Below the pieces are notes generated by a model, which was not told the origin of the DNA, searched no databases, and saw nothing but the letters and a program-made list of their open reading frames with translations. A stretch of DNA of 64,000 nt from an uncultured Eubacteriales bacterium (GTDB taxonomy: Bacteria > Acidobacteriota > Aminicenantia > Aminicenantales > Aminicenantaceae). The stretch is from contig CAYPGQ010000005.1 in assembly GCA_964410125.1 (NCBI GenBank), positions 21,395 to 85,394 of the forward strand, in the 5' to 3' direction. Positions 36,737-58,873 of the stretch are shown in pieces; the first letter of the stretch is position 1, and each line of letters opens with the position of its first letter. A program made the position numbers and the translations under genes.

Positions 36737-39283
36737 TTATCCCTTCAATGCTGAAATTAATTCTTTAACACTTTTAAATATGTATTTTTCAAAGTCTTCC
36801 TGACCTACTCTCATGAATGACCACTTACTCCCCGATAGACCCATAGCATCCTTGCACCATTTTTTCATCCTTTTGTCCTTATGCTCAACATCAACATCTT
36901 CTCTTCCTTTTGTTTCAATAATTAATCGTTCGCTCTCGTCAATTGTCACTAAAAAGTCGGGGTAATATAATCTAAGGTTATCCTTTGAATCTTTATACTC
37001 TACAAAGAACCCTATTTTGGGAACGATTTTACTGAAAGCCTCTACATCCTCAGCTCTGTCTAAAAATTTGGCAAAATCTAGCTCAAAATCATTATCACAT
37101 GGCACATAGTTAAAAATGCATCTATTGGCTAAATAAACCAATTTTGACCATACAAAAGGTCTAGTATCCGAGAGTCTTATGACATCCCTCTTTTCGGGCT
37201 CTCTTTCGGTGAAAGTCATATCTCTGAATGCATTTATGAATAAACTTATCAATTGTTCTTGAACTTCAGGAGAACTCAACTTATAAAGAACTCTGGGGTC
37301 TTCAAGGTCCACTTTCTCTGTAAACAATTTTTCCTCAACATATCTTTTCACCACGGGATAAAAACTTGCAAAGGCACCACCTATTTTTAGTTGTTTAAGT
37401 ATCTGGTCTGTATAATAAGCGATTACACTTTTGGAATCCTGAGGCACAGGCAAATCCCATTTTCTCTTTATAACTTCCATCCCTTTGAGCATATCCACAG
37501 CAATATATTCCATTTCTAAGCTTTTATTTTCTAAAGGAATCTTCAAGAAAGTTAGATTATCAATCTCTATTTCATCCAAATAAAATTCTCTTATGAGAAT
37601 TCTTGGACTCAGGATCGGTATTTCAATGTCCTTATCCAATTTATTTTCATCTATAAATATGGTGGTTAAATTAATCGACTTCCTGATGTCAAATTCGGCA
37701 AACTTTATATCTTCCTGATTTTCTAATTCTTCAAGAATATCTATCAGCCCGGGAGGTCCAATGACTTCGAGAACATTTACGGATTTGACTATATTTGCAT
37801 CTTCTTCTGGAAACATCTTCCTTAAGCCTCTTCCAATAACTTGTTCTGGAAGTACTTTTCTTTTTGAAGTATAAGACCGTAGTCCCACAATCACATTTAC
37901 ATTTCTCACATCCCACCCCTCATTTAACATTAATGTGCTGACTATTGCCTCGTAGGGATTTTTTTCAGGGTCAGGGTTATCAATAGTCTTTGCAAACTCT
38001 CTCGCCTTGGGCAAGTCTGCTTTTTTTACTTCTCCAGTACTATCCGTGTGTATCAATAATACTTTATCTTTAAGGTCTGGAACAGCAGAGTTCACATACC
38101 CAAATATTTCGTCTGCCTCCTTGTTCTCAGGGCATTGAAAGAAAAGCACAGGCTTCTTTGATAAGGGTCTCAATGCCTTTTTGTATTCTCGCCATCTTCT
38201 TATTCCCGCATCAATCCATGCTCTATATCTCTCAACAGCTTTAGTTGAAGCAATCTCGGAAGCATCTTTGACTATACCCTTTAGTGGTAATTTTACGATG
38301 TTCATTTCAATTGCTTCCTTGAGTGAGAAGTCCACGACAATCCATGGGAATAGGGCACCGGTCTCAGTTTTAGGCGTAGCCGAGAAGTCCAACTCCATAT
38401 TAATGCCTTTACCGGATTGAGAAACTAGATCTTTGTTAAGACCTAAAAGTATTTTCTTCCATGCCTTTTCAAAACTGTATATATGGTGGGCTTCGTCCTT
38501 CAAAATCATGATATTAGAGCAGGAAGTCAAAACCTCTTTTATTCTATTTTCTTGATAAATATCAGAAACATTATAAACTTCTGGCAATTCCATAACTTTA
38601 TCTACATACTCTTCTACTTCTTTCTTTTTGCTCTGCCGTTGTTCTAACTGCTGAATATTGGTTAAAAATAGCACACCCTCAGGAATAACATGAATTGGGT
38701 CTTCCTTAAGGATTACTTTTAAGTCGAACTCCTCTTGCCATTCTGGTGGAACAATCGGCAATTCTCTAAATATTTTTCCATCCTTAAAATCTCTGCAAAG
38801 CCTATCATAAATGACATTTTTCTCACCAGCGATAACCAGAAACTTGGATGTGTAATCATCTTTGTTTTCTCTCTTATGATTAAAGTAAGACCAGACTGTT
38901 GTTAATATCATCACAAAAGTTTTACCGGAGCCAGTTGCCATCTTGAATGCATAAAGAGGATATTGGTCATAAGAAGGGTCATACCCTTGTATGGGTCCCG
39001 CTCCAAAGTCCCTTGCCATATCTATAAAGTTTCTCTTTTTCATTACTTCATAAACATAAATCAGTGTTTCAATCGCTTCTCTCTGGCAGAACCAGAACTT
39101 GAAAGGCTCACCATCTACAATATGATCTTCACTAAACCAGAATCGCAACAAACGACGGCTGGTATCTGTTATGTTGGGATAGTCGTCTTCTCGCCAAGTG
39201 ATTACTGCTTTTCTTAGTTCATTAACCAAATATGCCTTACTTGGTCGTCTTTGTTCTGGGTGTAAGAGTTCAGTTGATTTCAT
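36737..39283 (-). CDS. Type III restriction enzyme Res subunit (SF2 helicase + PD-(D/E)xK endonuclease)
   Basis: Walker A MATGSGKTFVM, DEAH box ILKDEAHH, helicase motif VI-like VIGRGLR, and a C-terminal IIETKG endonuclease motif. Confidence 0.7.
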   Translation of the reverse strand: MKSTELLHPEQRRPSKAYLVNELRKAVITWREDDYPNITDTSRRLLRFWFSEDHIVDGEPFKFWFCQREAIETLIYVYEVMKKRNFIDMARDFGAGPIQGYDPSYDQYPLYAFKMATGSGKTFVMILTTVWSYFNHKRENKDDYTSKFLVIAGEKNVIYDRLCRDFKDGKIFRELPIVPPEWQEEFDLKVILKEDPIHVIPEGVLFLTNIQQLEQRQSKKKEVEEYVDKVMELPEVYNVSDIYQENRIKEVLTSCSNIMILKDEAHHIYSFEKAWKKILLGLNKDLVSQSGKGINMELDFSATPKTETGALFPWIVVDFSLKEAIEMNIVKLPLKGIVKDASEIASTKAVERYRAWIDAGIRRWREYKKALRPLSKKPVLFFQCPENKEADEIFGYVNSAVPDLKDKVLLIHTDSTGEVKKADLPKAREFAKTIDNPDPEKNPYEAIVSTLMLNEGWDVRNVNVIVGLRSYTSKRKVLPEQVIGRGLRKMFPEEDANIVKSVNVLEVIGPPGLIDILEELENQEDIKFAEFDIRKSINLTTIFIDENKLDKDIEIPILSPRILIREFYLDEIEIDNLTFLKIPLENKSLEMEYIAVDMLKGMEVIKRKWDLPVPQDSKSVIAYYTDQILKQLKIGGAFASFYPVVKRYVEEKLFTEKVDLEDPRVLYKLSSPEVQEQLISLFINAFRDMTFTEREPEKRDVIRLSDTRPFVWSKLVYLANRCIFNYVPCDNDFELDFAKFLDRAEDVEAFSKIVPKIGFFVEYKDSKDNLRLYYPDFLVTIDESERLIIETKGREDVDVEHKDKRMKKWCKDAMGLSGSKWSFMRVGQEDFEKYIFKSVKELISALKG

Positions 39284-40439
39284 CGCTTGTCACCTTGCAT
39301 CGGGGTATGGATAATATAAATTCCGTTTCCGTTGCATTTAACTTAATCTCTTTGTTTAATCTTTCTCTTATCGTTTTAATCATTCTGGGAACACCACTAC
39401 CGATATCTGTTACCATCCCAATTTTCAAAAGTAGATTATAAATAGTTGGATTTCGAAGGACATGACAGGATATCTTCATGCTATCTATAGTAACTGTATT
39501 AGGTAACCTTCCTGGCGTTCTGATTTCTATTCTGTCCTCAAATATGAATAATCTTATCGGAGCATTAATTGTATAATCTCGATGAGCTATCGCATTTACA
39601 ATCCCTTCTCTTAAAACTTTTTCAGGAATTTCAGGGTATAATTCTGATTCAAAACCTTTTATTTTGTGTTCTTCCTTTATATACAACTTCAGAAATTTTA
39701 ATGAGTTCTCAAGTATATCCGGAATTTTTGCTTCTAAATCTTTTTTATCAGATGGAGGAATAGAAACATCTATACCAGGTATGTAAGCGGCTATAATCTT
39801 TGCGTATGGAATAAATTGCTGAGGGTTTTTTCCAAAAAATAATATCCCAGCAATTGTAAGTTTTTTCTTATTTGTAATAACTTTAAGATTTTTGAGATAA
39901 TTCTCAATTAAACTTTCTTCTGGAGAAATATCTAAATATTTCTCCAGAAAATATATAAAGTAATCCATGTTAAGGCTGCCAAGTGGGGTTTTAGAGATAG
40001 GGGTCTCGTCATAATAAATGCTTCCGCTTGTTTGATAAAGCCTCCTAACTTCTAGCCATGAGGCTTGCCTACATCTATTCCCTGACTTAATATAATAAAG
40101 ACCACTTTTTGTTCGATAAGGTCTTTGCTCCCCTTTAGGAATATTGATAATTAAAACAATTTCACCATCCATATCCACTGTTTCTGGGAGAATACTAATA
40201 GGAGATTCACATCTATTGAATGCAACATCATCAATCTTTCTTACTGCTTCATCCAAATCTTCAACTCCTACAATATCACCTGAGTTGCCAATACCAATTA
40301 TTAATTGCCCACCATCTGTATTTGCAAAACAGACAATTGATTTTGCGAGAGTTTCATTATCAGGTAATCTTTCCTTGAACTCGGTATGTAAATTTTCACC
40401 TTTTAATATTTTTTCCTGTAGTTCCAATGTATCCATCAA
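39270..40439 (-). CDS. AlbA_2 / Schlafen-like divergent-AAA protein with a C-terminal HATPase-like domain
   Basis: N-terminal NLHTEFKERLPDNE...IVCFANTDGGQLIIGI is typical of the AlbA_2 domain. The C-terminal domain resembles HATPase_c_4. Its start overlaps the upstream gene by 4 nt and its end overlaps res. Confidence 0.55.
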   Translation of the reverse strand: MMDTLELQEKILKGENLHTEFKERLPDNETLAKSIVCFANTDGGQLIIGIGNSGDIVGVEDLDEAVRKIDDVAFNRCESPISILPETVDMDGEIVLIINIPKGEQRPYRTKSGLYYIKSGNRCRQASWLEVRRLYQTSGSIYYDETPISKTPLGSLNMDYFIYFLEKYLDISPEESLIENYLKNLKVITNKKKLTIAGILFFGKNPQQFIPYAKIIAAYIPGIDVSIPPSDKKDLEAKIPDILENSLKFLKLYIKEEHKIKGFESELYPEIPEKVLREGIVNAIAHRDYTINAPIRLFIFEDRIEIRTPGRLPNTVTIDSMKISCHVLRNPTIYNLLLKIGMVTDIGSGVPRMIKTIRERLNKEIKLNATETEFILSIPRCKVTSDEIN

Positions 40440-43159
40440 ACTCCCCCATATTTTTCTGCTCTTATTCTGAATGCTTCTTCTCCACCTTCCATAATATTTT
40501 TTACATCTGCCCTAATATCTTCTTTATCAATAGAGCCTTTGTTATTAATAACGCACCTTTCATTTTTAGTCTCTAAAACAAGAACCAATTCAGAGTCTCC
40601 TAAGACAGGGATGTTCGCATTATGTGTAGCAATAAATAATTGTCTTTTCCCCTTTATTTCTCTAAGGATTTTCACTACGTCCTCGTATATAAAACGGTTA
40701 TCAAGGTCCTCTTCAGGCTGGTCAAGAACAACAATCCTATCCTCTTGAGCAAATAGAAGCAATAATAAGGCAGTAGCTTTTTGACCAATAGAAAGTTTAT
40801 TAATTAATTTATATTCTTCATTCACTTTCAAAAATATTTCAATTTTGTCCTCGGGAAAAAAAGTTTCAAGCTCATAAAGTCTTTCGGAATCTTTAAACCA
40901 TTCTAATATTCTACTGGACATTGCCTGAGTGAGATTGAATTCTTCACGCAATTTCTGCTCATTACCCTTGATATATTGGGAAAGCAGAAGACCATCGGTA
41001 ACTTTATTGGGTGATTTAACCAACGCTTCAATAGCATCGCTTGAAACTTTTGAGCCTTTTAATAAGTTTTTTAAATCTTCCATAAAGTTGTCTCTTTCTT
41101 CTTCATATTTCACCTCAATTTTGAGTCTTCCTTTTAAGGCATCGTTTATTTTTTCAAGTTGTTCTTTTCTTATATTAAAAATATCATGCCTCTTCTTACC
41201 TATTTTATTCTTCGATTTCTCCCTATCATTTTCCAATTTTTCAATTTCCATTTCTAGCCTTATTAATTCTTCAATTAACGGTATTAACTTTGCCCTTTCC
41301 TTAGTCAATCTTTCGAGTTCGTCTGGTTTAAGTCCTTTCTCGGCCAATTCTTTTTTTATTTTTTGAATTTTTGTTTCTACTTTTTTCTTTTTTTCTAACC
41401 ATTCAGCATACAAGCCTTCAATACTTTTTCTGGTCTGGTCTGTTGTCTTGGAAAGCTGTTTTTTACTTTGCTCAAATGCTCTTTTAATTTGACTTATCTC
41501 TCCAGCTACCTTTTCCAGTATAAATTTATTTTCACTCTTGCCTCTCTTTAAATTATTTTCTAAATAGTTTAGTTCGGATGCAGATTCATCAAAAAAGAAA
41601 AGCATTTTTTCGTTTATTCCATCAAGTTTTTCAATTGCATCTTGTAATTTTTCTTCATCATCTACTATGTTAGTCCACCTTCTGAGTCTTTCTTCTACTT
41701 TCATACCTTTATAAACTTTTATTCCTGCTTCTATTCCCTTTAATCTTTGCTCATACTCTTCCCTTTTTCTCGTCTTTTCTTTAAGAGCTAAAAGCTTTCT
41801 TCCATTTTCTCTTAATTGTTCAATTAACCTCTTGAATTCCTCATGTAAATGCCTTATCCTCTCTCCTATTAATTCATCAATTAATTGGAGTTGAAAAGTA
41901 GGGGTAATAGAAAGAAAATAGAGTTCCTTTTGACCTATTATAATCGGATATTTTGCTTCTTCGAACAAACTCTGTATAGAAAAACCTGTCTTCACACCAC
42001 TTTCATCAATAATTTCTGTATCTTTCCCTATTGTCCTTTTTATCTCGAATTCCTTTTTCTCTTTTCCATAATATCTTTCAATAAAGACAGAAAGCTCCCC
42101 TCCACTTCCAACAACACTCTCTACAAAATCCATTCGGAAAGATTTATCTGCATAAATTGGTAAATCCATAACATATCGCATAGTTTCTATGATAGCCGAT
42201 TTACCCACACCCCTTCCTCCAATAAATGTATTTAGTTCAGGATTGAATAAAATTTCTATATCCCTCAGAAAAGTTGAGCCATTGATTAGTATCTTTGATA
42301 TTCTATTATGATAAAAAGAAGGACATTCATAAGTCTTCACCCTTACTTCTGGGTCGTGTAGAGCTATTTTTAAAGCACCAATGTTAAAAGAACTTAATTT
42401 ATAATATGTGGTTCTTAATTTACCATCCCTCTTTTTAGTGCCTATATCGTCAAGACTTTTAGGGTCAGTATTTTCAAGGATTGCTATTTTTTTAAAATAA
42501 TCAGATGGAAGTTCATTTGTAGATATAAGTTTATTTTTTCCTTCCTCAGAGATATATTCAATAGCATCAGGCTTTACATTCATCAAATACTTTGCAGATT
42601 GGGAAGGATTATAAGTATGAAGAAGTCCTTTATCATTTTCTAGGTGTGGAAATACAACCAAACATTTATATTTTTCTCGAATTTTACTTATCAACTTTTC
42701 CAGTTCTAATTCACTTTCAATATCTCTATGTTTTCTTCCGTCAACTAAGGATTTTTGTGGATTCTTGTCTAAACTGTGTAGAAATGTATTTAAACCTTTA
42801 ATATCCACATTTTGCTCAAAAATTAACAACAAATGAAGACCATATTTCCCACTTAATTTTAATGAAAGCTCAACTCCTGGAAATATTACAATTCCTTTAT
42901 CTTTAGCCTTATTCTTTATTAACTCAAACCAATCCTTTCTCAATCCGTTATAATCTGTAATAGCTCCTATCTTAATCTGCGCTTCTTGTATTTTCTTTAT
43001 ATATTCTTCTACTAATTTTTCACACTCGTTATTGGAATCTAAATTAATCCCTGGTGGTAATGTAAGACTTTCTACACCTGGAGAATGCAGATGTAAATCT
43101 GTCTTCACCCAATTTGCCCCATTATAACTTTTGTCATTCATAGTAATTAACTCTTTCAT
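40436..43159 (-). CDS. PHP-domain phosphoesterase fused to a Rad50/SMC-like ABC ATPase with a long coiled coil
   Basis: N-terminal DLHLHSPG and FPGVELSL PHP motifs. Walker A IGGRGVGKSAII at about residue 316. A coiled coil of about 350 aa. C-terminal signature SIGQKATALLLLLFA, Walker B VVLDQPEEDLD and H-loop IATHN. Confidence 0.5.
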   Translation of the reverse strand: MKELITMNDKSYNGANWVKTDLHLHSPGVESLTLPPGINLDSNNECEKLVEEYIKKIQEAQIKIGAITDYNGLRKDWFELIKNKAKDKGIVIFPGVELSLKLSGKYGLHLLLIFEQNVDIKGLNTFLHSLDKNPQKSLVDGRKHRDIESELELEKLISKIREKYKCLVVFPHLENDKGLLHTYNPSQSAKYLMNVKPDAIEYISEEGKNKLISTNELPSDYFKKIAILENTDPKSLDDIGTKKRDGKLRTTYYKLSSFNIGALKIALHDPEVRVKTYECPSFYHNRISKILINGSTFLRDIEILFNPELNTFIGGRGVGKSAIIETMRYVMDLPIYADKSFRMDFVESVVGSGGELSVFIERYYGKEKKEFEIKRTIGKDTEIIDESGVKTGFSIQSLFEEAKYPIIIGQKELYFLSITPTFQLQLIDELIGERIRHLHEEFKRLIEQLRENGRKLLALKEKTRKREEYEQRLKGIEAGIKVYKGMKVEERLRRWTNIVDDEEKLQDAIEKLDGINEKMLFFFDESASELNYLENNLKRGKSENKFILEKVAGEISQIKRAFEQSKKQLSKTTDQTRKSIEGLYAEWLEKKKKVETKIQKIKKELAEKGLKPDELERLTKERAKLIPLIEELIRLEMEIEKLENDREKSKNKIGKKRHDIFNIRKEQLEKINDALKGRLKIEVKYEEERDNFMEDLKNLLKGSKVSSDAIEALVKSPNKVTDGLLLSQYIKGNEQKLREEFNLTQAMSSRILEWFKDSERLYELETFFPEDKIEIFLKVNEEYKLINKLSIGQKATALLLLLFAQEDRIVVLDQPEEDLDNRFIYEDVVKILREIKGKRQLFIATHNANIPVLGDSELVLVLETKNERCVINNKGSIDKEDIRADVKNIMEGGEEAFRIRAEKYGGV

Positions 43160-45198
43160 TTTATCTTCACCTTCAAAACTTTATTTGTGTCATTCCCAAA
43201 CACATCCACAACTTTTGTCATTATCTGATATTCCCCTGCCTCTTCGTATTTGTGTCTAGCTTCATACTCTACTTTTGGATTCTTCTTCATCCTGAAACTC
43301 TGCCATTGATTATGAAAAGTATCGCCTTTGTAACCCCAGTCAATCGCCCAGTAGTCTATGAGCTCTCTTGAATCCTTTACCTTACAAGCGATTTCTGCAA
43401 GCTCCGCAGTTGGTGCAAGCTGAAAGTCTGTGATTTTCAGTTCTACTTCTTCCTTTTTCATTTTTGTTTCAATCTCCAAATAGGCAACTTCTGGGAATCT
43501 CACATATTTAGACAGTTCTTTTTCAATAACATCATCCCTTATTTTCAATAGTTGCAGGTCGAAACCCACTAAAGAAGATTTGATTTCATTCACTGATGGT
43601 ATTTGAACCAATTTCAAATCAACTCCGTTTTTCTTTGCTAATTCTTTTGCCAGCTCATTTACCTCATAACTCCACTCCCAGCCCAAAACATCTGCCTTAT
43701 TGAAATTATTGCTTTTACATTCAATTACAACCTTCTCAACTTCTTCCATCGTAACAGGAGCGTTCAAAGGACCAACATGTACTGCCCTCTCTCCTTTCCT
43801 TCCATGCAAATATCTAAACCCTGTTAGAGGTTGAGATTGATAGAGTTTGAGCATAAAAGCGAGGTATTCATCCTCTCTTTCCTGCCAGTAAACTGTTTCA
43901 TAATTTCCGATATTCCAGAGTTCAAAAGGTTTTGCTGGCTTTTCATAATTCTTTTTGTTTTCATCTTGTAAATCCTTTGAATTGTGAATATCTAAAAGCC
44001 TCTTTCTTGTAATTTGAATCGCAAACTTGGATAAATCAGAGCCTATCCATCTTCTACCGAGTTTCTCTGCAACCGCTAAAGTTGTGCCGGAACCGCAGAA
44101 GAAGTCAGCTACAATATCGCTTGGGTTAGAAGATGCAAGAATGACGCGTTTCAGGAGAGCTTCGGGTTTTTGAGTATCGAAGTCTAAACGCTCTGCACTG
44201 TTTGCTGAAATCGGAGCAACTTCATCATCTTTCCAAAGGTCCCCCAAGTAATTGCCTGCTTTTTCATCCAAGTATCTCTTTATCCTTGGGAGGCCGGATG
44301 ACGTAAAAATAATTTGCCCTTCGTCCATGGCTTTGTTAATCTTTTCTTGGTCCCAAATCCAATGTTTACCCGGTGGCGGATACAATAGCTTATCTCCGAA
44401 ATAACGTGGCGGGCCGCTTCCTTTCTGTGTAAAATCGAAAGAACCGTATCTCCGTCCGCTTTCCTCCTCTACATATGGGTAAACCTCCTCATCTTTTTCT
44501 CCTCTAATAAATTGTGGGTTGAAAATAGCACTGTTAGACTTTGAGTATATTAAGAGCATGTCCTTAACGTTACTGAAGAATTTGCTCTGGACTTTTGCAG
44601 CAGTCAGTTTGCGCCAAGTGATTTCATTTCTAAAATTCTCATACCCAAAAATTTCATCCATCATTACCTTAACATAATGTCCCACATGCCAGTCTAAATG
44701 CACATAAATAGAACCATTCTCAGCCAATAACCCCCTAATCAAAACCAATCGTTCGTACATATACTTGAGATAAGAAGCAATGCCACCGCTCCATGTATCT
44801 TTGTATGCTCGCTCTTCAATTATAGACGGCTCTTTTTCTATTCTCTCGTCTCCGAGTTTTGTTCTAATGGTAAAATCTGCTCCAGTAAAAAAGGGTGGGT
44901 CAATATATATCAGATTTATCTTACCAGCCCAGCCCTGCTTTATTAGAGAACTCATCACAAGCTTGTTATCCCCCCAGATGAGTTTGTTTTTCCAGTCCTT
45001 TGAATAGTTCTCAGGATACTCATTCTCCGGGAATAGTGAAACTGTATATCCTCCCTTAATTCTAGGTTTATTTACTGTTTCCACTACTTGAAAGGGAAGA
45101 TTTGGTTTCTCAACAGGTATCTTTTCCCCTTTCTCATATTTATCATATTTTTCTTCCCAAAGCAGCTCCACATATTTTTTGTTATGTGCCATATTCAT
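43156..45198 (-). CDS. Type III R-M Mod subunit (beta-class N6-adenine DNA methyltransferase)
   Basis: Motif IV IYIDPPF precedes motif I FFCGSGTT, which is the beta-class order typical of Mod proteins. Length 680 aa. The stop overlaps the next gene by 4 nt. Confidence 0.75.
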   Translation of the reverse strand: MNMAHNKKYVELLWEEKYDKYEKGEKIPVEKPNLPFQVVETVNKPRIKGGYTVSLFPENEYPENYSKDWKNKLIWGDNKLVMSSLIKQGWAGKINLIYIDPPFFTGADFTIRTKLGDERIEKEPSIIEERAYKDTWSGGIASYLKYMYERLVLIRGLLAENGSIYVHLDWHVGHYVKVMMDEIFGYENFRNEITWRKLTAAKVQSKFFSNVKDMLLIYSKSNSAIFNPQFIRGEKDEEVYPYVEEESGRRYGSFDFTQKGSGPPRYFGDKLLYPPPGKHWIWDQEKINKAMDEGQIIFTSSGLPRIKRYLDEKAGNYLGDLWKDDEVAPISANSAERLDFDTQKPEALLKRVILASSNPSDIVADFFCGSGTTLAVAEKLGRRWIGSDLSKFAIQITRKRLLDIHNSKDLQDENKKNYEKPAKPFELWNIGNYETVYWQEREDEYLAFMLKLYQSQPLTGFRYLHGRKGERAVHVGPLNAPVTMEEVEKVVIECKSNNFNKADVLGWEWSYEVNELAKELAKKNGVDLKLVQIPSVNEIKSSLVGFDLQLLKIRDDVIEKELSKYVRFPEVAYLEIETKMKKEEVELKITDFQLAPTAELAEIACKVKDSRELIDYWAIDWGYKGDTFHNQWQSFRMKKNPKVEYEARHKYEEAGEYQIMTKVVDVFGNDTNKVLKVKIK

Positions 45199-53019: not shown

Positions 53020-53562
53020 TCAATGATCCTGGGCCATAATTCCGACTTTTCTCAACTGTTCCTTAAGATATTGCTCACTCCTGTTCAATATACCCTTGAA
53101 GTGTTTCCGAACCACAATATCAAATTTAGGACAAAGTTGACTTTCCAAATCCTTCATCCGGTTAGGCCTTAAACTTTCAATCAACATCTCTCTTGTTGGG
53201 ATTTCATCCATCGGGATTTTCGCAAGAATCCAGTTTTCAAGAGGGGCAAGACGTAAGACTGCTATAACAGGTTGGTAGCCATCGTGAGTACGGTCACGAA
53301 GAGCCTGCACATTATCAGTGGTGAGAGGAATTGATAATTTCTCTGTGGTTTTTACCTCAACTGCAAACTTTTGATTAGATTCCGATGTTATATCAATATC
53401 AACTCCTTGCACGCCTCGTTCTACAATATTAGTAAAGCCCATTTCATGGAAGCTGAGAGCCAGTAGTTTTTGTACAATTTTGCCAAAAGGTCCAGATGGT
53501 GTACCTTTGATTCCAAACTTTTTCTGCAACTTCTGTAAAAGTTCAAGAGTTTCTACTTTCAT
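53020..53562 (-). CDS. Small PD-(D/E)xK-fold nuclease-like protein
   Basis: GVDIDITSESNQKFAVEVKT matches the D-x(n)-E-x-K restriction-endonuclease-like core. Its start is 3 nt after the upstream ATPase stop. Confidence 0.4.
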   Translation of the reverse strand: MKVETLELLQKLQKKFGIKGTPSGPFGKIVQKLLALSFHEMGFTNIVERGVQGVDIDITSESNQKFAVEVKTTEKLSIPLTTDNVQALRDRTHDGYQPVIAVLRLAPLENWILAKIPMDEIPTREMLIESLRPNRMKDLESQLCPKFDIVVRKHFKGILNRSEQYLKEQLRKVGIMAQDH

Positions 53563-53564
53563 AA

Positions 53565-55742
53565 TTATATTTCCTTCGAAATTTTCGGGCCGGAATCCGG
53601 TGCCCAGTCCGAAAGCTTATATATAGTTTTGACTTTGGTAATATTATCCTTTAAAAGCTGTTGCATTTCAGCATCCATAGTAGAGACTGTAATGTTTTTT
53701 ATATCGCTGAGTTCATTAAAGATTTCTACAAGACGAGCTTTTTGCTGTGAATCTAAACTTTGCGATGAGTCGTCCATCAAGATAAATCCGAGAGGATGAG
53801 AATCTCCAGATGCTTTAGTCAAACCTAAGAAAATAGACAAAGCAAGGCTATTCAGGTCTCCTTGACTTAGAACAGGAATGGGTCTCTTGCCGTCTTGGTC
53901 TTCGAAAATATAAAAGTTTCCGCCAGTTTTTTTATCCTCATCTACTTTAATATTGAGTGTTTGAAAAGCCGGGTTGTTGGTTATTCTACGAAAGTAGCGG
54001 CCAATTGCACTCCTGGCTGAATCAATTTTTTCTTCTGCTTCCTTTAGCATACAAGATTTGATAATTTTACTAAGTTCTTCCACGTCTCTTACTAGATTTG
54101 AGACATCGGTTCTGATTTTCTCTTGTTTCTGGTATTCATTGGTTTTTTGAATTTGGTTTATTTCTTCGAGTTTATTCTTAAATAGCAAAATATCATAAAG
54201 TAAGTTCATTATATCTGTTTTTTCTAAAATGGCGTCAATTGTAACTTGCTTATTCTTAATAGCATCTGCAATCTCTTTTAAACGTGAATCAATGTTTTTT
54301 ATTTCTATGGATAATATTGCAGCAGGATCATCCTTATCAGTCAACTCTTTATGTAGAAATTCTGAGATATTATTGATTGCCTTCTTTAATTCCTCTTTTT
54401 CTCTTCTAGCGTCTTTCTCTAAGTGGACAAGTTCCTTCTTCAATCTTTCAAAATCGGTTTTCTTTTTGTCTAATTCTGCCTGTTGTTTTTCTAACTCCTG
54501 CACTTGGGCTGTAATTTTTTCCTCCCATTCCTTTCGTAAATGCTCAAGCAAATTGGACACCTTTTCTCCGCATAAGGGACAAATGTCAGCATCAGAGGGA
54601 GCAGCTAATTTCAGAATGGAAATACCTTCTTCAATCAATTTCGCTTTCGGGCTTATTCGCTTAATTTCTTTATTAATAGCATCAATCTCTTCAAATGCTT
54701 TTCTTATTTTATTGTCGATTTCATCTTTGTTGCCATTTTCTTGTTCAAAATCCTGAAGTTCCTTCTTCTTTGATTTAAGATTCAGGTATTGAGTCTCATA
54801 TTTACTTTTGAATGAAACCATTTCGCTTCTCTTCCTTTGTTTTTCTGATTGTTCTTTCACGTCGGGAGATTCTGCCCAAAGACGGCTGCACTCATTCTTA
54901 ATATCGGTAATAAATGACTCGGTATTTTTCCAATCAGAAGGAGGAGAAATTGCCGTTGTTGTAAGTCCCAATAGTCGGGCAAAGTTACCAATGTCTTTTA
55001 TGGTTGATTCTACCAGTTCAAGCAGTTTATTTTCGTTTAATTCTTCTTCACTCAGTCCCTTCTCTTTGGCTTTATCTCTTTTATTATCCAGGTCTTTTTG
55101 CCTTATCTTTATCCCTTCTTGTACACGGGTCTGAAATTTATTAAATTCTTCTGTAAGCTCTTTCTGAAGCTTTAAGACGTCAGACTTCTTAATACCATCA
55201 AGAATATTCCGATAATCTGATAAACCTAAGAGGCGGTCCATTACAGCACTCTGTTCGCTTGGTTTTTGTATCACAAAGTCGTGGATAGTCTCCTGGTGTT
55301 GATATACGGTAGTAGCAAAGTCTTTGAATGAAACCCGAAGTAACTTTGCTATTTCTTGGTCACCCTCGTCTCCTTCTTTCTCTGTTCCATTTGGCAAAGA
55401 TATTTTTATACTTTTGCCTTTTTTGCCTTTTCCCTTGGCTTCGGCTCGAGTAATAGTAAAGATTCCCTGTTCTCCCTCGATTTTCAAATTTACCTTGGCC
55501 TTCTCAGAATTATCATTCACAACTCTCCAGGCCATCTCACCTGTGCCTACACGTTCACGAATTCCAGATTTTTCACCAATGCACTCATCTCCATACAAAC
55601 ACCATTCAATTGCATTTAATACACTACTCTTACCTTGATGATTTCCCCCATGTAGTAAAGTAACGGGATTTTCGAATTCGATAGAGGTTTTTTGAGTAAA
55701 TCCTCTGAATCCTTCTATTTCTACTTTTTTAATCTTTAACAT
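53565..55742 (-). CDS. Compact Rad50/SbcC-like ABC ATPase with coiled coil and a CxxC zinc hook
   Basis: N-terminal EIEGFRGF...HGGNHQGKSSVLNAIEWCLYG (Walker A). A central coiled coil with ICPLCGEK at its midpoint. C-terminal signature LSQGDLNSLALSIF and Walker B FILMDDSSQSLD. Confidence 0.6.
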   Translation of the reverse strand: MLKIKKVEIEGFRGFTQKTSIEFENPVTLLHGGNHQGKSSVLNAIEWCLYGDECIGEKSGIRERVGTGEMAWRVVNDNSEKAKVNLKIEGEQGIFTITRAEAKGKGKKGKSIKISLPNGTEKEGDEGDQEIAKLLRVSFKDFATTVYQHQETIHDFVIQKPSEQSAVMDRLLGLSDYRNILDGIKKSDVLKLQKELTEEFNKFQTRVQEGIKIRQKDLDNKRDKAKEKGLSEEELNENKLLELVESTIKDIGNFARLLGLTTTAISPPSDWKNTESFITDIKNECSRLWAESPDVKEQSEKQRKRSEMVSFKSKYETQYLNLKSKKKELQDFEQENGNKDEIDNKIRKAFEEIDAINKEIKRISPKAKLIEEGISILKLAAPSDADICPLCGEKVSNLLEHLRKEWEEKITAQVQELEKQQAELDKKKTDFERLKKELVHLEKDARREKEELKKAINNISEFLHKELTDKDDPAAILSIEIKNIDSRLKEIADAIKNKQVTIDAILEKTDIMNLLYDILLFKNKLEEINQIQKTNEYQKQEKIRTDVSNLVRDVEELSKIIKSCMLKEAEEKIDSARSAIGRYFRRITNNPAFQTLNIKVDEDKKTGGNFYIFEDQDGKRPIPVLSQGDLNSLALSIFLGLTKASGDSHPLGFILMDDSSQSLDSQQKARLVEIFNELSDIKNITVSTMDAEMQQLLKDNITKVKTIYKLSDWAPDSGPKISKEI

Positions 55743-55754
55743 CGTCTACCTTCA

Positions 55755-55940
55755 TCATAGCGTTTTTTCAAGATTCTCAAGTAGTTGTTCATAATCCTTT
55801 TTGATTTTATCTATTCGAGAGTTGAGCGTTGATTTTATCTGCTCAACTCCACCTTGTTCATAGGATTCGCATATTTCTTGCCAGAGATTTCTCAATTTCT
55901 CTTCTTTTATTTCTTTTTGAACTTTTTCTTTATAGGTCAT
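55755..55940 (-). CDS. Small (61 aa) charged coiled-coil protein
   Basis: Short ORF 12 nt upstream of the ATPase gene. Helical, K/E-rich. Confidence 0.3.
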   Translation of the reverse strand: MTYKEKVQKEIKEEKLRNLWQEICESYEQGGVEQIKSTLNSRIDKIKKDYEQLLENLEKTL

Positions 55941-55997
55941 AGATTTCTCCTTTATCTCTTAATTTGTAGCTCCAATTGATAATTATCAGCGATTTCA

Positions 55998-56010
55998 TAA
56001 CACCGTGTTA
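55998..56010. promoter_or_regulatory. Perfect 6-1-6 palindrome TAACAC-C-GTGTTA upstream of the small-protein / Rad50-like ATPase operon
   Basis: Read directly from the sequence. Partner site at 45298..45310. Confidence 0.25.
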
Positions 56011-56034
56011 TGTGATAGGCAATCAATTTCAATT

Positions 56035-56625
56035 TTAATCCCTCTTTCGACAAATATGATTCATCTTTTTTTGGAAATTATCTCTAAGGTTTGTATTTCT
56101 TTCATCTTTTAATTGTTCAAGGTAATGATAAAAATCGTCTTTAAGTTTTTTATGAAATTCAGTTCTGTTGATAACCATTTTATTATTGATATTTTGAACG
56201 AGTGGACCAATAGAACAAACTAAAGAATCACTTTGTATTTCAGCTTGGTGTAGAATTCCACATCTATAATTCTTGTAGAATCGCATTGCCATATCCTGTG
56301 AAAAATACTTTTTGAAAGATGGACTTGTTGTTAAGAATTTTTTAAACGCTTTTTCAGATTTATTCTTTGTAGTTTTCCACCCTTCAATAAATGATTGTAG
56401 TGTTTCAATTAACAGACAATCGATAGATAATATTGTAAATCCATATTTCTTTTCTTTGGACAGTTTATTTTTTTCTTTTTCTATTAATAAATCTACTGGT
56501 TCAAAATATCTGTTCTCTATTCTCATATTTAATATTTCTATGGCTCGGTTCCAGTCAGGACTGGATAAATCATTTAAATTCAATCTGAGCCATTCGTTAT
56601 GCTGTATTCCTGGAGCAATTTCCAA
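56035..56625 (-). CDS. Hypothetical protein (196 aa)
   Basis: ORF in the AT-rich island. No recognisable motifs. Confidence 0.35.
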   Translation of the reverse strand: MEIAPGIQHNEWLRLNLNDLSSPDWNRAIEILNMRIENRYFEPVDLLIEKEKNKLSKEKKYGFTILSIDCLLIETLQSFIEGWKTTKNKSEKAFKKFLTTSPSFKKYFSQDMAMRFYKNYRCGILHQAEIQSDSLVCSIGPLVQNINNKMVINRTEFHKKLKDDFYHYLEQLKDERNTNLRDNFQKKMNHICRKRD

Positions 56626-56757
56626 ATATATTCCTCCCTATTGAGTGCCTTTCATATAACGTTCCTAGCATAAAACAAGTTTTTGTAAATTAAATATATG
56701 GGTGAGTACCACCAGGCATGAACCTTTTGTGCTATGTTAGGCGATGTCCACACCCTC

Positions 56758-58236
56758 TTATGCTCCAAGAACCCATTGGACTGTGAGTTCCTTTTCATCA
56801 AAGAGACTCTTCGCAGTCGTAGCATCGTCTTTTGCAAGACGTGCAGCAATTTCACCTGACGGATCAGGGTCGTCCCATATCTTGTGGTCGAATATCTTCT
56901 TGACAAATCGTCTGAAGTAATTGAATTCCTCATCTGGAATGACACGGTAGAAAAAGAGCGCTCTCTCTTCGTCTGTATAATTTTTCAGGTGTATATTAAT
57001 TGCATCTCTCAATAGAATAGCCCAAGCCCTCACGGCTCCCGCGCTAAAGATTCTTTCAGCTTTTTTGTGCACAGCATCAGCACGTTCAGGCGCCCACTTA
57101 TCTTCTAATCCTTCTTCAGCGATAATAGTCATAAGTTTGACTAGATTGCGCTTTTCGTCCTTTCGAAAGTCGGTATCGGATTCGAATTCTTCATCAACGG
57201 GCGGCGACACCAGCATGTGTTGAAAAAAAGTCTTTTTTATTCGAGCAAATGTCAAGGGTTGCTTTCGACCTCTGTGCTTCTCTGATAGATACCTTGACAA
57301 CTTGTTTGACTCATCGTTTACTATTTCATTGTACAAAGCTAGTGCGATTTCATTTCTAGCTTGTGCCCATGTCTTTTGCTTTGAGTGGAAGAGGAAATTG
57401 TAGAAACCTAATTCCGACTTTTCTCCTTCCGTATCCATATATTCTATCCAGTCCTCTCCAAAGATATCGGCATATTTCTGCATCAATTCATGAGAATAAA
57501 ATGACATTTGTCTGTATGGCCCGTGTGCATCAAGATTGGTTTCCTTTAGCAATCTCTTGTCTGGGGTGATGTATATTTTACATTCTATCATTGGACGCCC
57601 AGCCCAAATTTGAGCTGCTGCTTTATGTTGTCCGTCGAAGAGATAAAGAGTGCCACTTTCATCGATTCTACAAATTGAGGGGGATATCTGTGTGTTAATT
57701 TGAAAGTGCCGATATAACTTCCATAAATTTGGCTCTCGTAGGGGGCGGGGTTGTAACTCAATGTCATTTCCGATGTATTCAACTGGTAATGTTCCGTAGA
57801 AATATTTCCAATTGGTTGTTGCGCATATGTAAAGTGGAAAGTCATGCCTGGAATCCTTATAAAATAGGCTGATATGCTCTTCTTTGATTTCGTAGCTGAG
57901 TCGTTCTCCACAATGCCCCTTTTTATGACGGATTAAATCGTCAAGAAATTTAGGCTCCCCACCTTCGAAAAATGCCGCGAGTTCTATCTTGTCACGATAC
58001 TCTTGAAGGCTCATTGTACCAATCGTGCGATGGTGACGTTTGCAAACGGGAGCAATATTATCCAAGCTAGTTGGACCACCTGAGGAAAATGGTTTAATGT
58101 GATGAAATTCGATAGACGCATCCTCAGGAATAGGTTCCCCGTCAACAAAGCACCTTCGCTCATGCTGATCGAGAACCTTTTGCTTTTCAGTTTCTGAGAG
58201 CTGTCTTTTTTTGGCCATTTCTTCCCTCCTTTTCAT
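56758..58236 (-). CDS. HNH endonuclease domain fused to a DGQHR / ParB-like (DUF262-like) domain
   Basis: N-terminal CFVDG...HHIKPFSSGG...LDNIAPVCKRHH (HNH). Mid-protein LYLFDGQHKAAAQIWAGR, a DGQHR-type ParB/DndB-like motif. Confidence 0.5.
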   Translation of the reverse strand: MKRREEMAKKRQLSETEKQKVLDQHERRCFVDGEPIPEDASIEFHHIKPFSSGGPTSLDNIAPVCKRHHRTIGTMSLQEYRDKIELAAFFEGGEPKFLDDLIRHKKGHCGERLSYEIKEEHISLFYKDSRHDFPLYICATTNWKYFYGTLPVEYIGNDIELQPRPLREPNLWKLYRHFQINTQISPSICRIDESGTLYLFDGQHKAAAQIWAGRPMIECKIYITPDKRLLKETNLDAHGPYRQMSFYSHELMQKYADIFGEDWIEYMDTEGEKSELGFYNFLFHSKQKTWAQARNEIALALYNEIVNDESNKLSRYLSEKHRGRKQPLTFARIKKTFFQHMLVSPPVDEEFESDTDFRKDEKRNLVKLMTIIAEEGLEDKWAPERADAVHKKAERIFSAGAVRAWAILLRDAINIHLKNYTDEERALFFYRVIPDEEFNYFRRFVKKIFDHKIWDDPDPSGEIAARLAKDDATTAKSLFDEKELTVQWVLGA

Positions 58237-58340
58237 TTTTCATATGTTATGGAGTGAATGTTGCCTAACCATTATGCGAAAAAGAAACTACTATTTTCCC
58301 CTGTTGTATATCTTTGCCGATTTTTAGATTTGCCATAAAT

Positions 58341-58556
58341 TTATATTATTAGTTCCTTCCAACTTACATTTAATGCTTTGGCGATTTTTGCAACTGTCTG
58401 AACAGAAGATTTTTTAACAACATTGGACTCTAATTTTGTTAAAGTGGTATAAGGAATGTCGGCTTTTCTTGCAAGTCTATCTTGTTTAAGTTCTTTTTTC
58501 TCCCGAAATTTTTTTACATTATCTACAATCATATTTGTAATTGATATTGTTTCCAA
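58341..58556 (-). CDS. XRE-family helix-turn-helix transcriptional regulator (71 aa)
   Basis: LKQDRLARKADIPYTTLTKLESN is a typical HTH_3 segment. The size resembles RM controller or cI-like proteins. Confidence 0.7.
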   Translation of the reverse strand: METISITNMIVDNVKKFREKKELKQDRLARKADIPYTTLTKLESNVVKKSSVQTVAKIAKALNVSWKELII

Positions 58557-58796: not shown

Positions 58797-58873
58797 TGGT
58801 CGGGACGGGCGGATTTGAACCGCCGACCCCACGCACCCCAAGCGTGTGCGCTACCAGACTGCGCCACGTCCCG
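58797..58873 (-). tRNA. tRNA-Pro (anticodon GGG), CCA encoded
   Basis: The minus-strand sequence CGGGACG-TG-GCGC-AGTCTGGTA-GCGC-A-CACGC-TTGGGGT-GCGTG-GGGTC-GGCGG-TTCAAAT-CCGCC-CGTCCCG-A-CCA folds into a canonical cloverleaf with anticodon GGG and G37. Confidence 0.8.

Follow-up and report, generated by a model that had tools for sequence, protein, structure and literature searches.

The window analysed here, a stretch of 64,000 nucleotides (nt) from an uncultured bacterium of the Aminicenantaceae (contig CAYPGQ010000005.1 of assembly GCA_964410125.1, positions 21,395 to 85,394), carries on its minus strand a gene for a predicted HNH nuclease. In a mechanical list of open reading frames (ORFs) the gene appears as an ORF of 492 amino acids (aa; 56758-58236), which contains HHIKPFSSGGPTSLDNIAPVCKRHH (residues 45-69) and LYLFDGQHKAAAQIWAGR, the latter with the string DGQHK at residues 201-205. 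An earlier note on this DNA had described the product as a fusion of an HNH nuclease with a DGQHR/ParB-like domain, in an order inverted relative to GmrSD-type enzymes. The ORF and both quoted motifs proved to be real and far beyond chance, as attested by 822 homolog clusters at 90% identity and by a set of invariant residues. The first six annotated codons hold a conserved AAGGAGG, followed by ATG-GCC. Because this ribosome binding site (RBS) falls inside the first annotated codons, homologs measure about 486 aa and an independent gene call from the same organism also gives 486 aa, the true start, as judged from sequence, is most likely M7 (ATG, 58216-58218), which would yield a protein of 486 aa. 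The domains of this protein and the integron-type ends that frame its gene are listed in Table 1.

Table 1. Features of the HNH gene, of the protein it encodes and of the DNA next to it (window coordinates).
Feature	Position	Strand	Basis or remark
Corrected coding sequence, 486 aa	56758..58218	-	alignment with L006, L007, L008; homolog lengths; independent call
RBS AAGGAGG	58225..58231	-	6 nt 5' of M7 ATG; conserved in window, L006, L007, L008
HNH (beta-beta-alpha-Me) nuclease domain, residues 29-72	58021..58152	-	PF01844, profiles, Foldseek
Linker helix and beta-rich segment, residues 96-143	57808..57951	-	AlphaFold2: H98-106, E114-134, pLDDT 80-92
ParB/Srx-fold domain, residues 144-240, predicted to bind nucleoside triphosphate	57517..57807	-	Foldseek, motifs
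Box I-like ELQPR (Q162-R164)	57745-57753	-	invariant motif
DGQHK, residues 201-205	57622-57636	-	invariant motif
LKETN, residues 230-234	within 57517..57807	-	motif of the ParB/Srx-like domain
All-alpha domain, residues 245-492, ~15 helices	56761..57504	-	AlphaFold2, Foldseek
5' cassette arm GTTAGGCAACATTCACTCC	58251..58269	-	GTTAGGC 58263-58269 = core site GTTRRRY; inter-genome similarity starts here
3' cassette arm GGTGTGGACATCGCCTAAC	56736..56754	-	GCCTAAC 56736-56742 = inverse core RYYYAAC; inter-genome similarity ends here
XRE/helix-turn-helix (HTH) gene, 71 aa, upstream of the HNH gene	58341-58556		HTH_3 E=4.9e-12; PADLOC 'Control_protein' E=8e-9

The presence of an N-terminal HNH nuclease domain was confirmed. 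Residues 39-71 match PF01844 with 29 bits (E=1.2e-6), above the gathering threshold of 21.4, and HNH is the sole domain that Pfam recognises in the window protein. Distant family members score 21-37 bits with the same model, and the domain is found in essentially all full-length members, both among about 300 representatives at 50% identity and in a second clade of about 515 aa. The pattern D/H-H...N...H is visible in the consensus of 80 sequences. Among 26 members sharing 53-88% identity, C29, H46, N60, C65 and H68 are invariant, as are the stretches L161-R164 (LQPR) and F200-A207 (FDGQHKAA) that follow the domain. H46, N60 and H68 are candidate catalytic residues, and C29 together with C65 is a zinc-site remnant. 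A profile of the family matched the HNH domains of a group II intron maturase (5e-14), Cas9, IscB, Gme-HNH and McrA, and a Foldseek search with the AlphaFold model also had Cas9-HNH and McrA among its matches. The predicted nuclease is of the classical HNH class of Cas9, IscB and group II introns, and not of the DUF1524 class.

The region around DGQHK was placed in a ParB/Srx fold by structure prediction. The fold match rests on a predicted model, a full-length AlphaFold2 model with a predicted local distance difference test (pLDDT) score of 82.5. When this model was compared with the PDB using Foldseek, the top match was Arabidopsis sulfiredoxin (6ky4; target-normalised template modelling (TM) score 0.72, root-mean-square deviation 3.0 Å, 29% identity, 87 columns), followed by ParB, PadC, Noc, KorB and human sulfiredoxin, the remaining matches being HNH domains. 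The matches to the ParB/Srx superfamily had a probability of about 1.0. A phmmer search with the isolated domain reached sulfiredoxin (E=0.036), and the viral library BFVD returned ParB/Srx, DndB-type and GmrSD-N proteins. Sulfiredoxin and the N-terminal domains of ParB, Noc and KorB, the best structural matches, share with the family a box-I-like QPR and a phosphate-binding loop at a helix start (GCHR, GERR and DGQHK, respectively). Unlike these proteins, the family has no HTH, partition machinery or ParA, and its domain is linked to a nuclease rather than to segregation or redox repair.

Within the family, DGQHK is still present at about 25% identity, and DGQHK together with Q(P)R is kept down to about 20% identity. 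Three motifs define DGQHR domains, namely a QR pair, DGQHR and FxxxN (PMC4619093). At the corresponding positions the family has Q162-P-R164, D201-G-Q-H-K205 and L230-K-E-T-N234, which are similar, not identical. In a scan of 80 diverse representatives, with identity down to about 20%, the DGQHR model TIGR03187 was found below threshold in 6 of the 80 (about 13-16 bits against a cutoff of 58.85, E=0.004-0.06), and the ParB partition model TIGR00180 (parB_part) in two (best E=0.15). DGQHR and ParB were the only recurring non-HNH models of NCBIfam to fit the region; an antitoxin model was seen in two of the 80 and the others were singletons. The weak DGQHR matches are collinear with the protein, with profile positions 95-144 corresponding to the DGQHK region and 152-274 to the helical region. 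The ParB-like domain is distantly related to the DndB/DGQHR branch and lies outside every curated family. What the earlier note had proposed, a DGQHK domain of ParB/DUF262 type, is consequently upheld in part: predicted structure and motif positions support a ParB-like domain, whereas sequence profiles (ParBc, DUF262, DndB) do not. The scans with hidden Markov models (HMMs) that the note had suggested gave HNH alone above cutoff, and the DGQHK segment did not align to ParB or DUF262 profiles, the outcome that the note had itself named as a refutation; TIGR03187 had no match at E<=1 in the window protein.

It is hardly credible that the DGQHK string is a chance resemblance and that what follows the HNH domain has no relation to ParB/Srx. 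The silence of the curated ParB, DUF262 and DndB HMMs would fit such a coincidence, as would the sequence-only profile searches of the PDB, which recover HNH proteins only. However, the top structural matches all belong to the ParB/Srx superfamily, the motifs are invariant and stand at the positions expected for the fold, and the two recurring non-HNH families are the ones that suit it. Matches to 'Pizza' proteins in the PDB (E=1e-5) were discarded as an artefact of summing six weak repeats.

Modelled alone by AlphaFold2, the C-terminal domain gave a pLDDT of 90.3 and a predicted TM score of 0.88. Its invariant residues are E275, R358, E361 and W454. No Pfam match was obtained for this domain, and neither Pfam nor NCBIfam matched the linker (residues 96-143). 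In the relative L037, residues 292-421 align to TIGR03187 positions 152-274 with E=0.0057. A helical DNA-binding domain, ParBDB, lies after the ParB domain in DndB, GmrSD and SspE (Menshen study, PMC12065111), and the C-terminal domain may correspond to ParBDB in a very divergent or extended form. It is a likely candidate for a DNA-binding or sensor domain.

The architecture invites comparison with GmrSD, BrxU and SspE, which likewise combine a ParB/Srx-fold NTPase-type domain with a DGQxR-like motif, a helical domain and a His-Me-finger nuclease in one polypeptide, and which are stand-alone, horizontally mobile genes that often lie beside defence genes. A reading that builds on the comparison in the earlier note is that of a domain-permuted Type IV enzyme of the GmrSD/SspE/BrxU kind, which would specifically cut modified phage DNA (e.g. 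glucosyl-hydroxymethylcytosine or phosphorothioate DNA). Beyond the two shared modules, this reading can draw on a GmrSD N-terminal domain protein among the BFVD matches, on the helical domain, whose place behind the ParB-like domain is that of ParBDB in GmrSD and SspE (PMC12065111), on one JGI record that labels a relative McrA, and on a weak PADLOC match to mREase_IV. However, the family nuclease is an N-terminal PF01844 HNH of Cas9/IscB type and not a C-terminal DUF1524, the motif reads DGQHK instead of DGQQR, and neither DUF262 (PF03235) nor DUF1524 was matched at any threshold tried. The helical domain is about twice the size of theirs and has no fold match in the PDB (SspE and BrxU included, if in the library); no SspE or BrxU chain occurs among the Foldseek matches of the C-terminal model (best E=1.3) or in the top 50 of the full model. 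Nothing in the analysis points to a specificity for modified DNA. We regard a permuted Type IV enzyme as unlikely. The inverted order itself stands, as the nuclease does precede the ParB-like domain, contrary to the arrangement in GmrSD and SspE (PMC4619093, PMC12065111), but the protein is not a permuted GmrSD: it belongs to the theme of a ParB-NTPase joined to a His-Me nuclease without being a member of GmrSD.

For the ParB-like and helical regions the nearest sequence family is that of the DndB/DGQHR proteins (TIGR03187, PF14072), collinear and with equivalents of all three motifs. The family differs from them in its low profile scores, in a lysine in place of the arginine, in the fused HNH and in the lack of dnd genes nearby. 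The protein might be a DndB-like regulator or accessory of DNA modification (phosphorothioation or 7-deazaguanine type) to which an HNH domain has been added, and it would then act on the host's own modified DNA rather than as a stand-alone defence. The DGQHR/DndB-type domain as the only recurring non-HNH family would agree with such a role, as would a 'DNA-sulfur modification-associated protein' among the BFVD matches and a weak NCBIfam match to PT-DNA_restrict through the HNH domain. However, every DGQHR score is far below the cutoff, and dnd, ssp and dpd genes were found neither in the window nor among conserved neighbours at 85 loci. Two genes downstream, the SMC-type ATPase scores best as LmuB (1e-49) against 1e-8 for DndD, and it never co-occurs with the homologs. 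A DndB-like role is very improbable. HNH-less members bridging to DndB were also rejected: the relatives of P0227 are all HNH proteins of about 515 aa, with no PF14072-annotated matches, so that P0227 is probably a truncated call.

Besides the novel C-terminal domain, the analysis added a finding on the mobility of the gene, a point missed by the earlier note. By blastn, the window copy shares 88-94% nucleotide identity with copies in metagenome-assembled genomes (MAGs) of Dehalococcoidia, Cloacimonadota and WOR-3, and the identity is confined to 56732-58269. The shared DNA consists of the gene and about 30 bp on each side and ends in inverted GTTAGGC…GCCTAAC. The window holds a single-gene unit of 1,534 bp (56736-58269) with inverted integron-type core sites at both ends; 14 of the 19 positions of its two arms are complementary. 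Arms with at least 10 of 13 matches were found at 11% of loci as against 1.1% of mismatched controls, an enrichment of about ten-fold. The GC content of the cassette is 0.42, that of the adjacent block 0.35. A conserved cassette leader (58219-58250) includes the RBS; a promoter within the leader was rejected, as the leader is without a sigma-70-type match. Since the sole sigma-70-like promoter match near the cassette lies at the start of the XRE gene (58556-58528), transcription of the HNH gene may arise by read-through from XRE in this genome.

In some genomes the family gene is a bona fide integron cassette. At locus L072 a divergent fragment of IntI, matched by TIGR02249 with 122.6 bits over 116 aa (Xer models give about 20 bits), is followed in order by G|TTAGGCGGCT, the family gene, GGCCGCCGAAC, a 120-nt hairpin of attC type (z=-3.4) and a GTTGGGC end; the GTTAGGC core after IntI is the same as the 5' core of the window. 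In-frame stops and frame shifts interrupt the L072 integrase (L072:1-400), in which '*ACRS'-like insertions recur; it is either a pseudogene or an assembly error. The gene in L047 belongs to an array with at least 13 repeats, whose centre is characteristic of the array and whose R boxes are characteristic of the single cassettes. These direct repeats (L047:1-21491, Turneriella sp. chromosome) measure about 90-225 nt, are spaced 0.7-4.5 kb apart, begin with ...nnnnAAC-AAAATTTAC and end with GTAAATTCCAC-GTTnnnn. No integrase was seen in the 21 kb examined, and the array suggests a chromosomal integron or a cluster of attC sites lacking an integrase (CALIN), with unusually long attC-like sites. 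Inverted arms of 19-23 nt together with flanking direct repeats were found in L046, L063 and L068, and the attC of L063 has a plausible fold (z=-1.8). Host-specific repeat arrays adjoin the gene in L006 and L008. In the latter, a WOR-3 MAG (L008:960-9980), an intergenic unit of about 140-220 nt stands before cassettes in 3-4 copies; it comprises a consensus-like promoter (TTGACT-17-TATTAT), a mini-ORF (MKKSSHS), the hairpin TATATCCG-N8-CGGATATA and the end ...AAC(A/G)AG|TTAnnCG, and is not a typical attC. L007 was rejected as an integron platform: the recombinase matched there by an IntI1 probe (L007:8692-9603), about 400 bp from the 5' core site of the cassette, is a full-length, divergently encoded XerD (TIGR02225, 337 bits, above cutoff).

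An intact attC was rejected for the window, L006 and L007, where fold energies were no better than those of shuffled sequences. Between the window copy and L006 and L007, the identity at four-fold degenerate sites is 73-84%, but all similarity is lost precisely at the R'' box (GCCTAAC) and at G|TTAGGC. As the similarity ends at the R'' box despite this identity at four-fold sites, the copies are without a common attC centre, and neutral decay was rejected as the cause of the stop at GCCTAAC on the same grounds. The copy in the window looks like a solitary, partly decayed cassette, with an unrelated XRE gene on one side, a Lamassu-like operon on the other and a tRNA-Pro gene next to it. No empty site was found: all 15 contigs that carry the exact 196-aa neighbour show the same arrangement. 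The gene moves between distant microbes as a single-gene cassette. A self-mobilising transposon resembling an insertion sequence, with terminal inverted repeats, was rejected because the arms are generic R'/R'' core sites, present also on other cassettes of L047, because no target-site duplications were seen and because nearly all genomes contributed a single locus. Among described cassettes, the His-Me-finger cassettes Sirona and Nemetona of the sedentary chromosomal integron (SCI) of V. cholerae (10.1101/2024.07.02.601686) are comparable in being single-gene, nuclease-type cassettes bounded by G|TTRRRY ... RYYYAAC. They differ in that the family protein is another and much larger one (486 aa), that the window copy lies outside an array and without an integrase, and that no attC centre is common to the hosts.

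A gene that travels in this manner might be selfish or addictive, serving its own maintenance or spread (array stabilisation, or homing-like cleavage of empty sites) without benefit to the host against phages. The exchange of a gene-sized unit with inverted ends between phyla, the lack of a partner or immunity gene and the closeness of the HNH domain to those of mobile-element nucleases (group II intron maturase, IscB) are in line with this idea, and integron arrays do carry addictive toxin-antitoxin cassettes (10.1101/2024.07.02.601686). Set against it, the gene is essentially single-copy per genome in the recovered loci, target-site duplications and empty sites were not found, and the inverted ends, being core sites of the generic kind that IntI serves, are not specific to the family. 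Carriage by plasmids or phages was rejected, as 50,697 phage and 72,556 plasmid records gave no match to the family. Simple homing, moreover, needs neither a conserved nucleotide switch nor a large sensor-like domain. A selfish or addictive cassette thus appears improbable.

Across homolog loci the gene stands by itself. Its five neighbours in the window (the XRE gene, the ORFs of 196, 61 and 180 aa and the LmuB-like SMC ATPase) were found at none of 85 homolog loci, and no partner gene is common to more than 7 of about 80 loci. In Cobetia and L002 it is a singleton among housekeeping genes, and elsewhere its neighbours include type III and type I restriction-modification (R-M) systems, a KAP NTPase and SMC-like genes. 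The XRE gene that the earlier note had seen immediately upstream is physically there, but an XRE-controlled or toxin-antitoxin-type module of two genes is not supported: the XRE gene lies outside the shared unit, and homologs of it were found at 0 of 85 loci in a tblastn search whose sensitivity is limited for a 71-aa HTH protein. It is an incidental neighbour, and the XRE protein itself has no database record. Functional linkage to either XRE or the Lamassu-like operon was rejected on the same count of loci. A tRNA-Pro(GGG) gene (58797-58873) flanks the cassette and is the only known RNA family near it.

On balance we lean, with modest confidence, towards a self-contained three-part nuclease, made up of the HNH domain, a ParB/Srx switch and the helical domain, that serves as a single-gene defence and spreads by integron-type mobility. 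The QPR, DGQHK and TN motifs would form a pocket for a nucleoside triphosphate (NTP) in the ParB/Srx domain, and NTP binding or hydrolysis there would act as a switch, probably via dimerisation. The helical domain would recognise foreign DNA, the switch would couple this recognition to the licensing of HNH cleavage, and the protein would act, free of partners, as an anti-phage or anti-plasmid nuclease. We infer NTP binding, nuclease activity, target and defence role by analogy with GmrSD, BrxU, SspE and ParB: the NTPase activity of DUF262 activates the associated nuclease in GmrSD and SspE (PMC12065111, PMC4619093), and for ParB nucleotide switches the source of the analogy is a 2025 survey (PMC12704722). 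The defence role agrees with the R-M, KAP NTPase and SMC-like genes near the gene at other loci, with the LmuB-like gene and the type III R-M block of the window, and with the larger number of PADLOC models matched close to the gene than far from it. Defence genes are, moreover, known to be stored in integron cassettes (bioRxiv 10.1101/2024.07.02.601686).

Several observations weigh against a switchable defence nuclease of this kind. The ParB, DUF262 and DndB profiles of Pfam, NCBIfam and PADLOC did not match the window protein at E<=1; Pfam ParBc (PF02195), PF03235 and PF14072 matched neither seven divergent relatives nor the isolated domain even at E<=10; and the family profile, run against PDB sequences at E<=10, found HNH proteins only and no ParB, SspE or BrxU. 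The arginine of DGQHR/GxxR is an invariant lysine in the family, and this replacement weakens the prediction of NTP binding. Foldseek detected no relative of the C-terminal model in the PDB (best E=1.3, probability <=0.15), nor a fold like that of SspE or BrxU. PADLOC has no model for the family, and its sole match, mREase_IV, is weak and runs through the HNH domain. The neighbourhoods range from purely metabolic (L002, Cobetia) to rich in R-M genes, several being metabolic, and the apparent enrichment of defence genes, with 239 PADLOC models matched for ORFs within 2.5 kb and 56 for ORFs at least 6.5 kb away, is crude because the models are redundant and only family counts were returned. As for mobility, the window has no IntI-like ORF and no repeat array, its attC candidate (56653-56742) folds no better than shuffles (z=+0.33), and the missing shared attC centre misfits classical cassette inheritance.

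The protein belongs to a large family without prior characterisation, in which HNH, a DGQHK ParB/Srx domain and a novel helical domain are found in one polypeptide. An exhaustive search with residues 96-492 returned 300 representatives at 50% identity, nearly all of 480-550 aa, with about 100-170 residues before the match. The clade of about 515 aa comprises at least 302 clusters, among them sequences from Arthrobacter, Pseudomonas, Cobetia and Thiobacillus, and the whole family exceeds 1,100 clusters at 90% identity in many phyla. Hosts include Chloroflexota, Actinomycetota, WOR-3, Cloacimonadota, Spirochaetota, Bacteroidota, Planctomycetota and Proteobacteria as well as one Methanothrix MAG. 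In their source records the members are annotated as 'HNH endonuclease' or 'hypothetical', and no mention of the string DGQHK was found in the searchable literature. Bacterial fusions of a ParB-CTPase fold with a PF01844 HNH, which resemble the family in joining a ParB-fold nucleotide-switch domain to the same nuclease domain, are flagged as novel and unexplored in the 2025 survey (PMC12704722). As the fusion analysis of the survey goes by Pfam accessions and the family has no Pfam ParB match, the family is probably outside its catalogue.

Further defence-related genes were observed in the window and at other loci. Directly downstream of the cassette lies a candidate Lamassu-type operon (53020-56625, minus strand) with a full-length LmuB-like SMC ATPase (53565-55742; PADLOC LmuB, E=1.1e-49). 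The small ORFs beside it (196 aa, 56035-56625; 61 aa, 55755-55940; 180 aa, 53020-53562) gave no family matches, the 180-aa ORF showing weak Hjc/NOV_C (PD-(D/E)XK-like) hints, and no recognisable LmuA effector was seen in the operon. A second defence locus of the window (36737-45198, minus strand) is a low-GC block (0.33-0.40) with a type III R-M system, consisting of an N6_N4 methylase (43156-45198) and a ResIII/RE_endonuc protein (36737-39283). Between these two genes lie a 907-aa PHP and SMC/AAA_15-like ATPase (40436-43159) and a Schlafen AlbA_2/HATPase_c_4 protein (39270-40439).

At other loci, an actinobacterial subclade of the family (L023, L024, L025, L028, L032, L033 and L035, Actinomycetota MAGs) has a conserved gene of about 770 aa, often with another of about 118 aa, just upstream; this arrangement may be a clade-specific multi-gene variant. 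In L004 (L004:7663-19132) a gene for an 858-aa protein, in which an SMC_N signal is faintly visible, comes 10 nt after the family gene; next in line is a type I R-M system that encloses a KAP-family NTPase. In Arthrobacter (L092:9694-17518, CP104263.1) the neighbours are a UvrD-type helicase and a 2121-aa DEAD/Helicase_C/MZB (DUF1998) protein. The latter may be akin to the DruE-type helicases of Druantia.

Since Pfam, NCBIfam and PADLOC see only "HNH" in its members, the family is invisible to present defence-system finders. ParB-fold switches coupled to nucleases, as in GmrSD, BrxU and SspE, are an emerging theme in bacterial immunity. The family is a compact, partner-free version of this theme, with the opposite domain order, a classical HNH, a lysine-for-arginine loop and a sensor-like domain. 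It would thus offer a clean system for studying the gating of a nuclease by NTP switching and the signal sensed by the helical domain, and experiments are feasible because cultured hosts exist (Arthrobacter, Cobetia, Pseudomonas). We put forward only tentatively, as a rather doubtful extension, that the window gene is the founding example of a widespread family of NTP-switch nucleases in bacteria and some archaea, which would provide integron-borne anti-phage immunity as a cross-phylum unit without a shared attC centre. If true, this would hint at a cassette that moves or is re-fitted between arrays beyond the classical attC model. That the gene recurs in integron arrays of uncultivated phyla strengthens the case for integrons as stores of defence genes, and the lack of a shared attC centre is relevant to the formation or exchange of cassettes.

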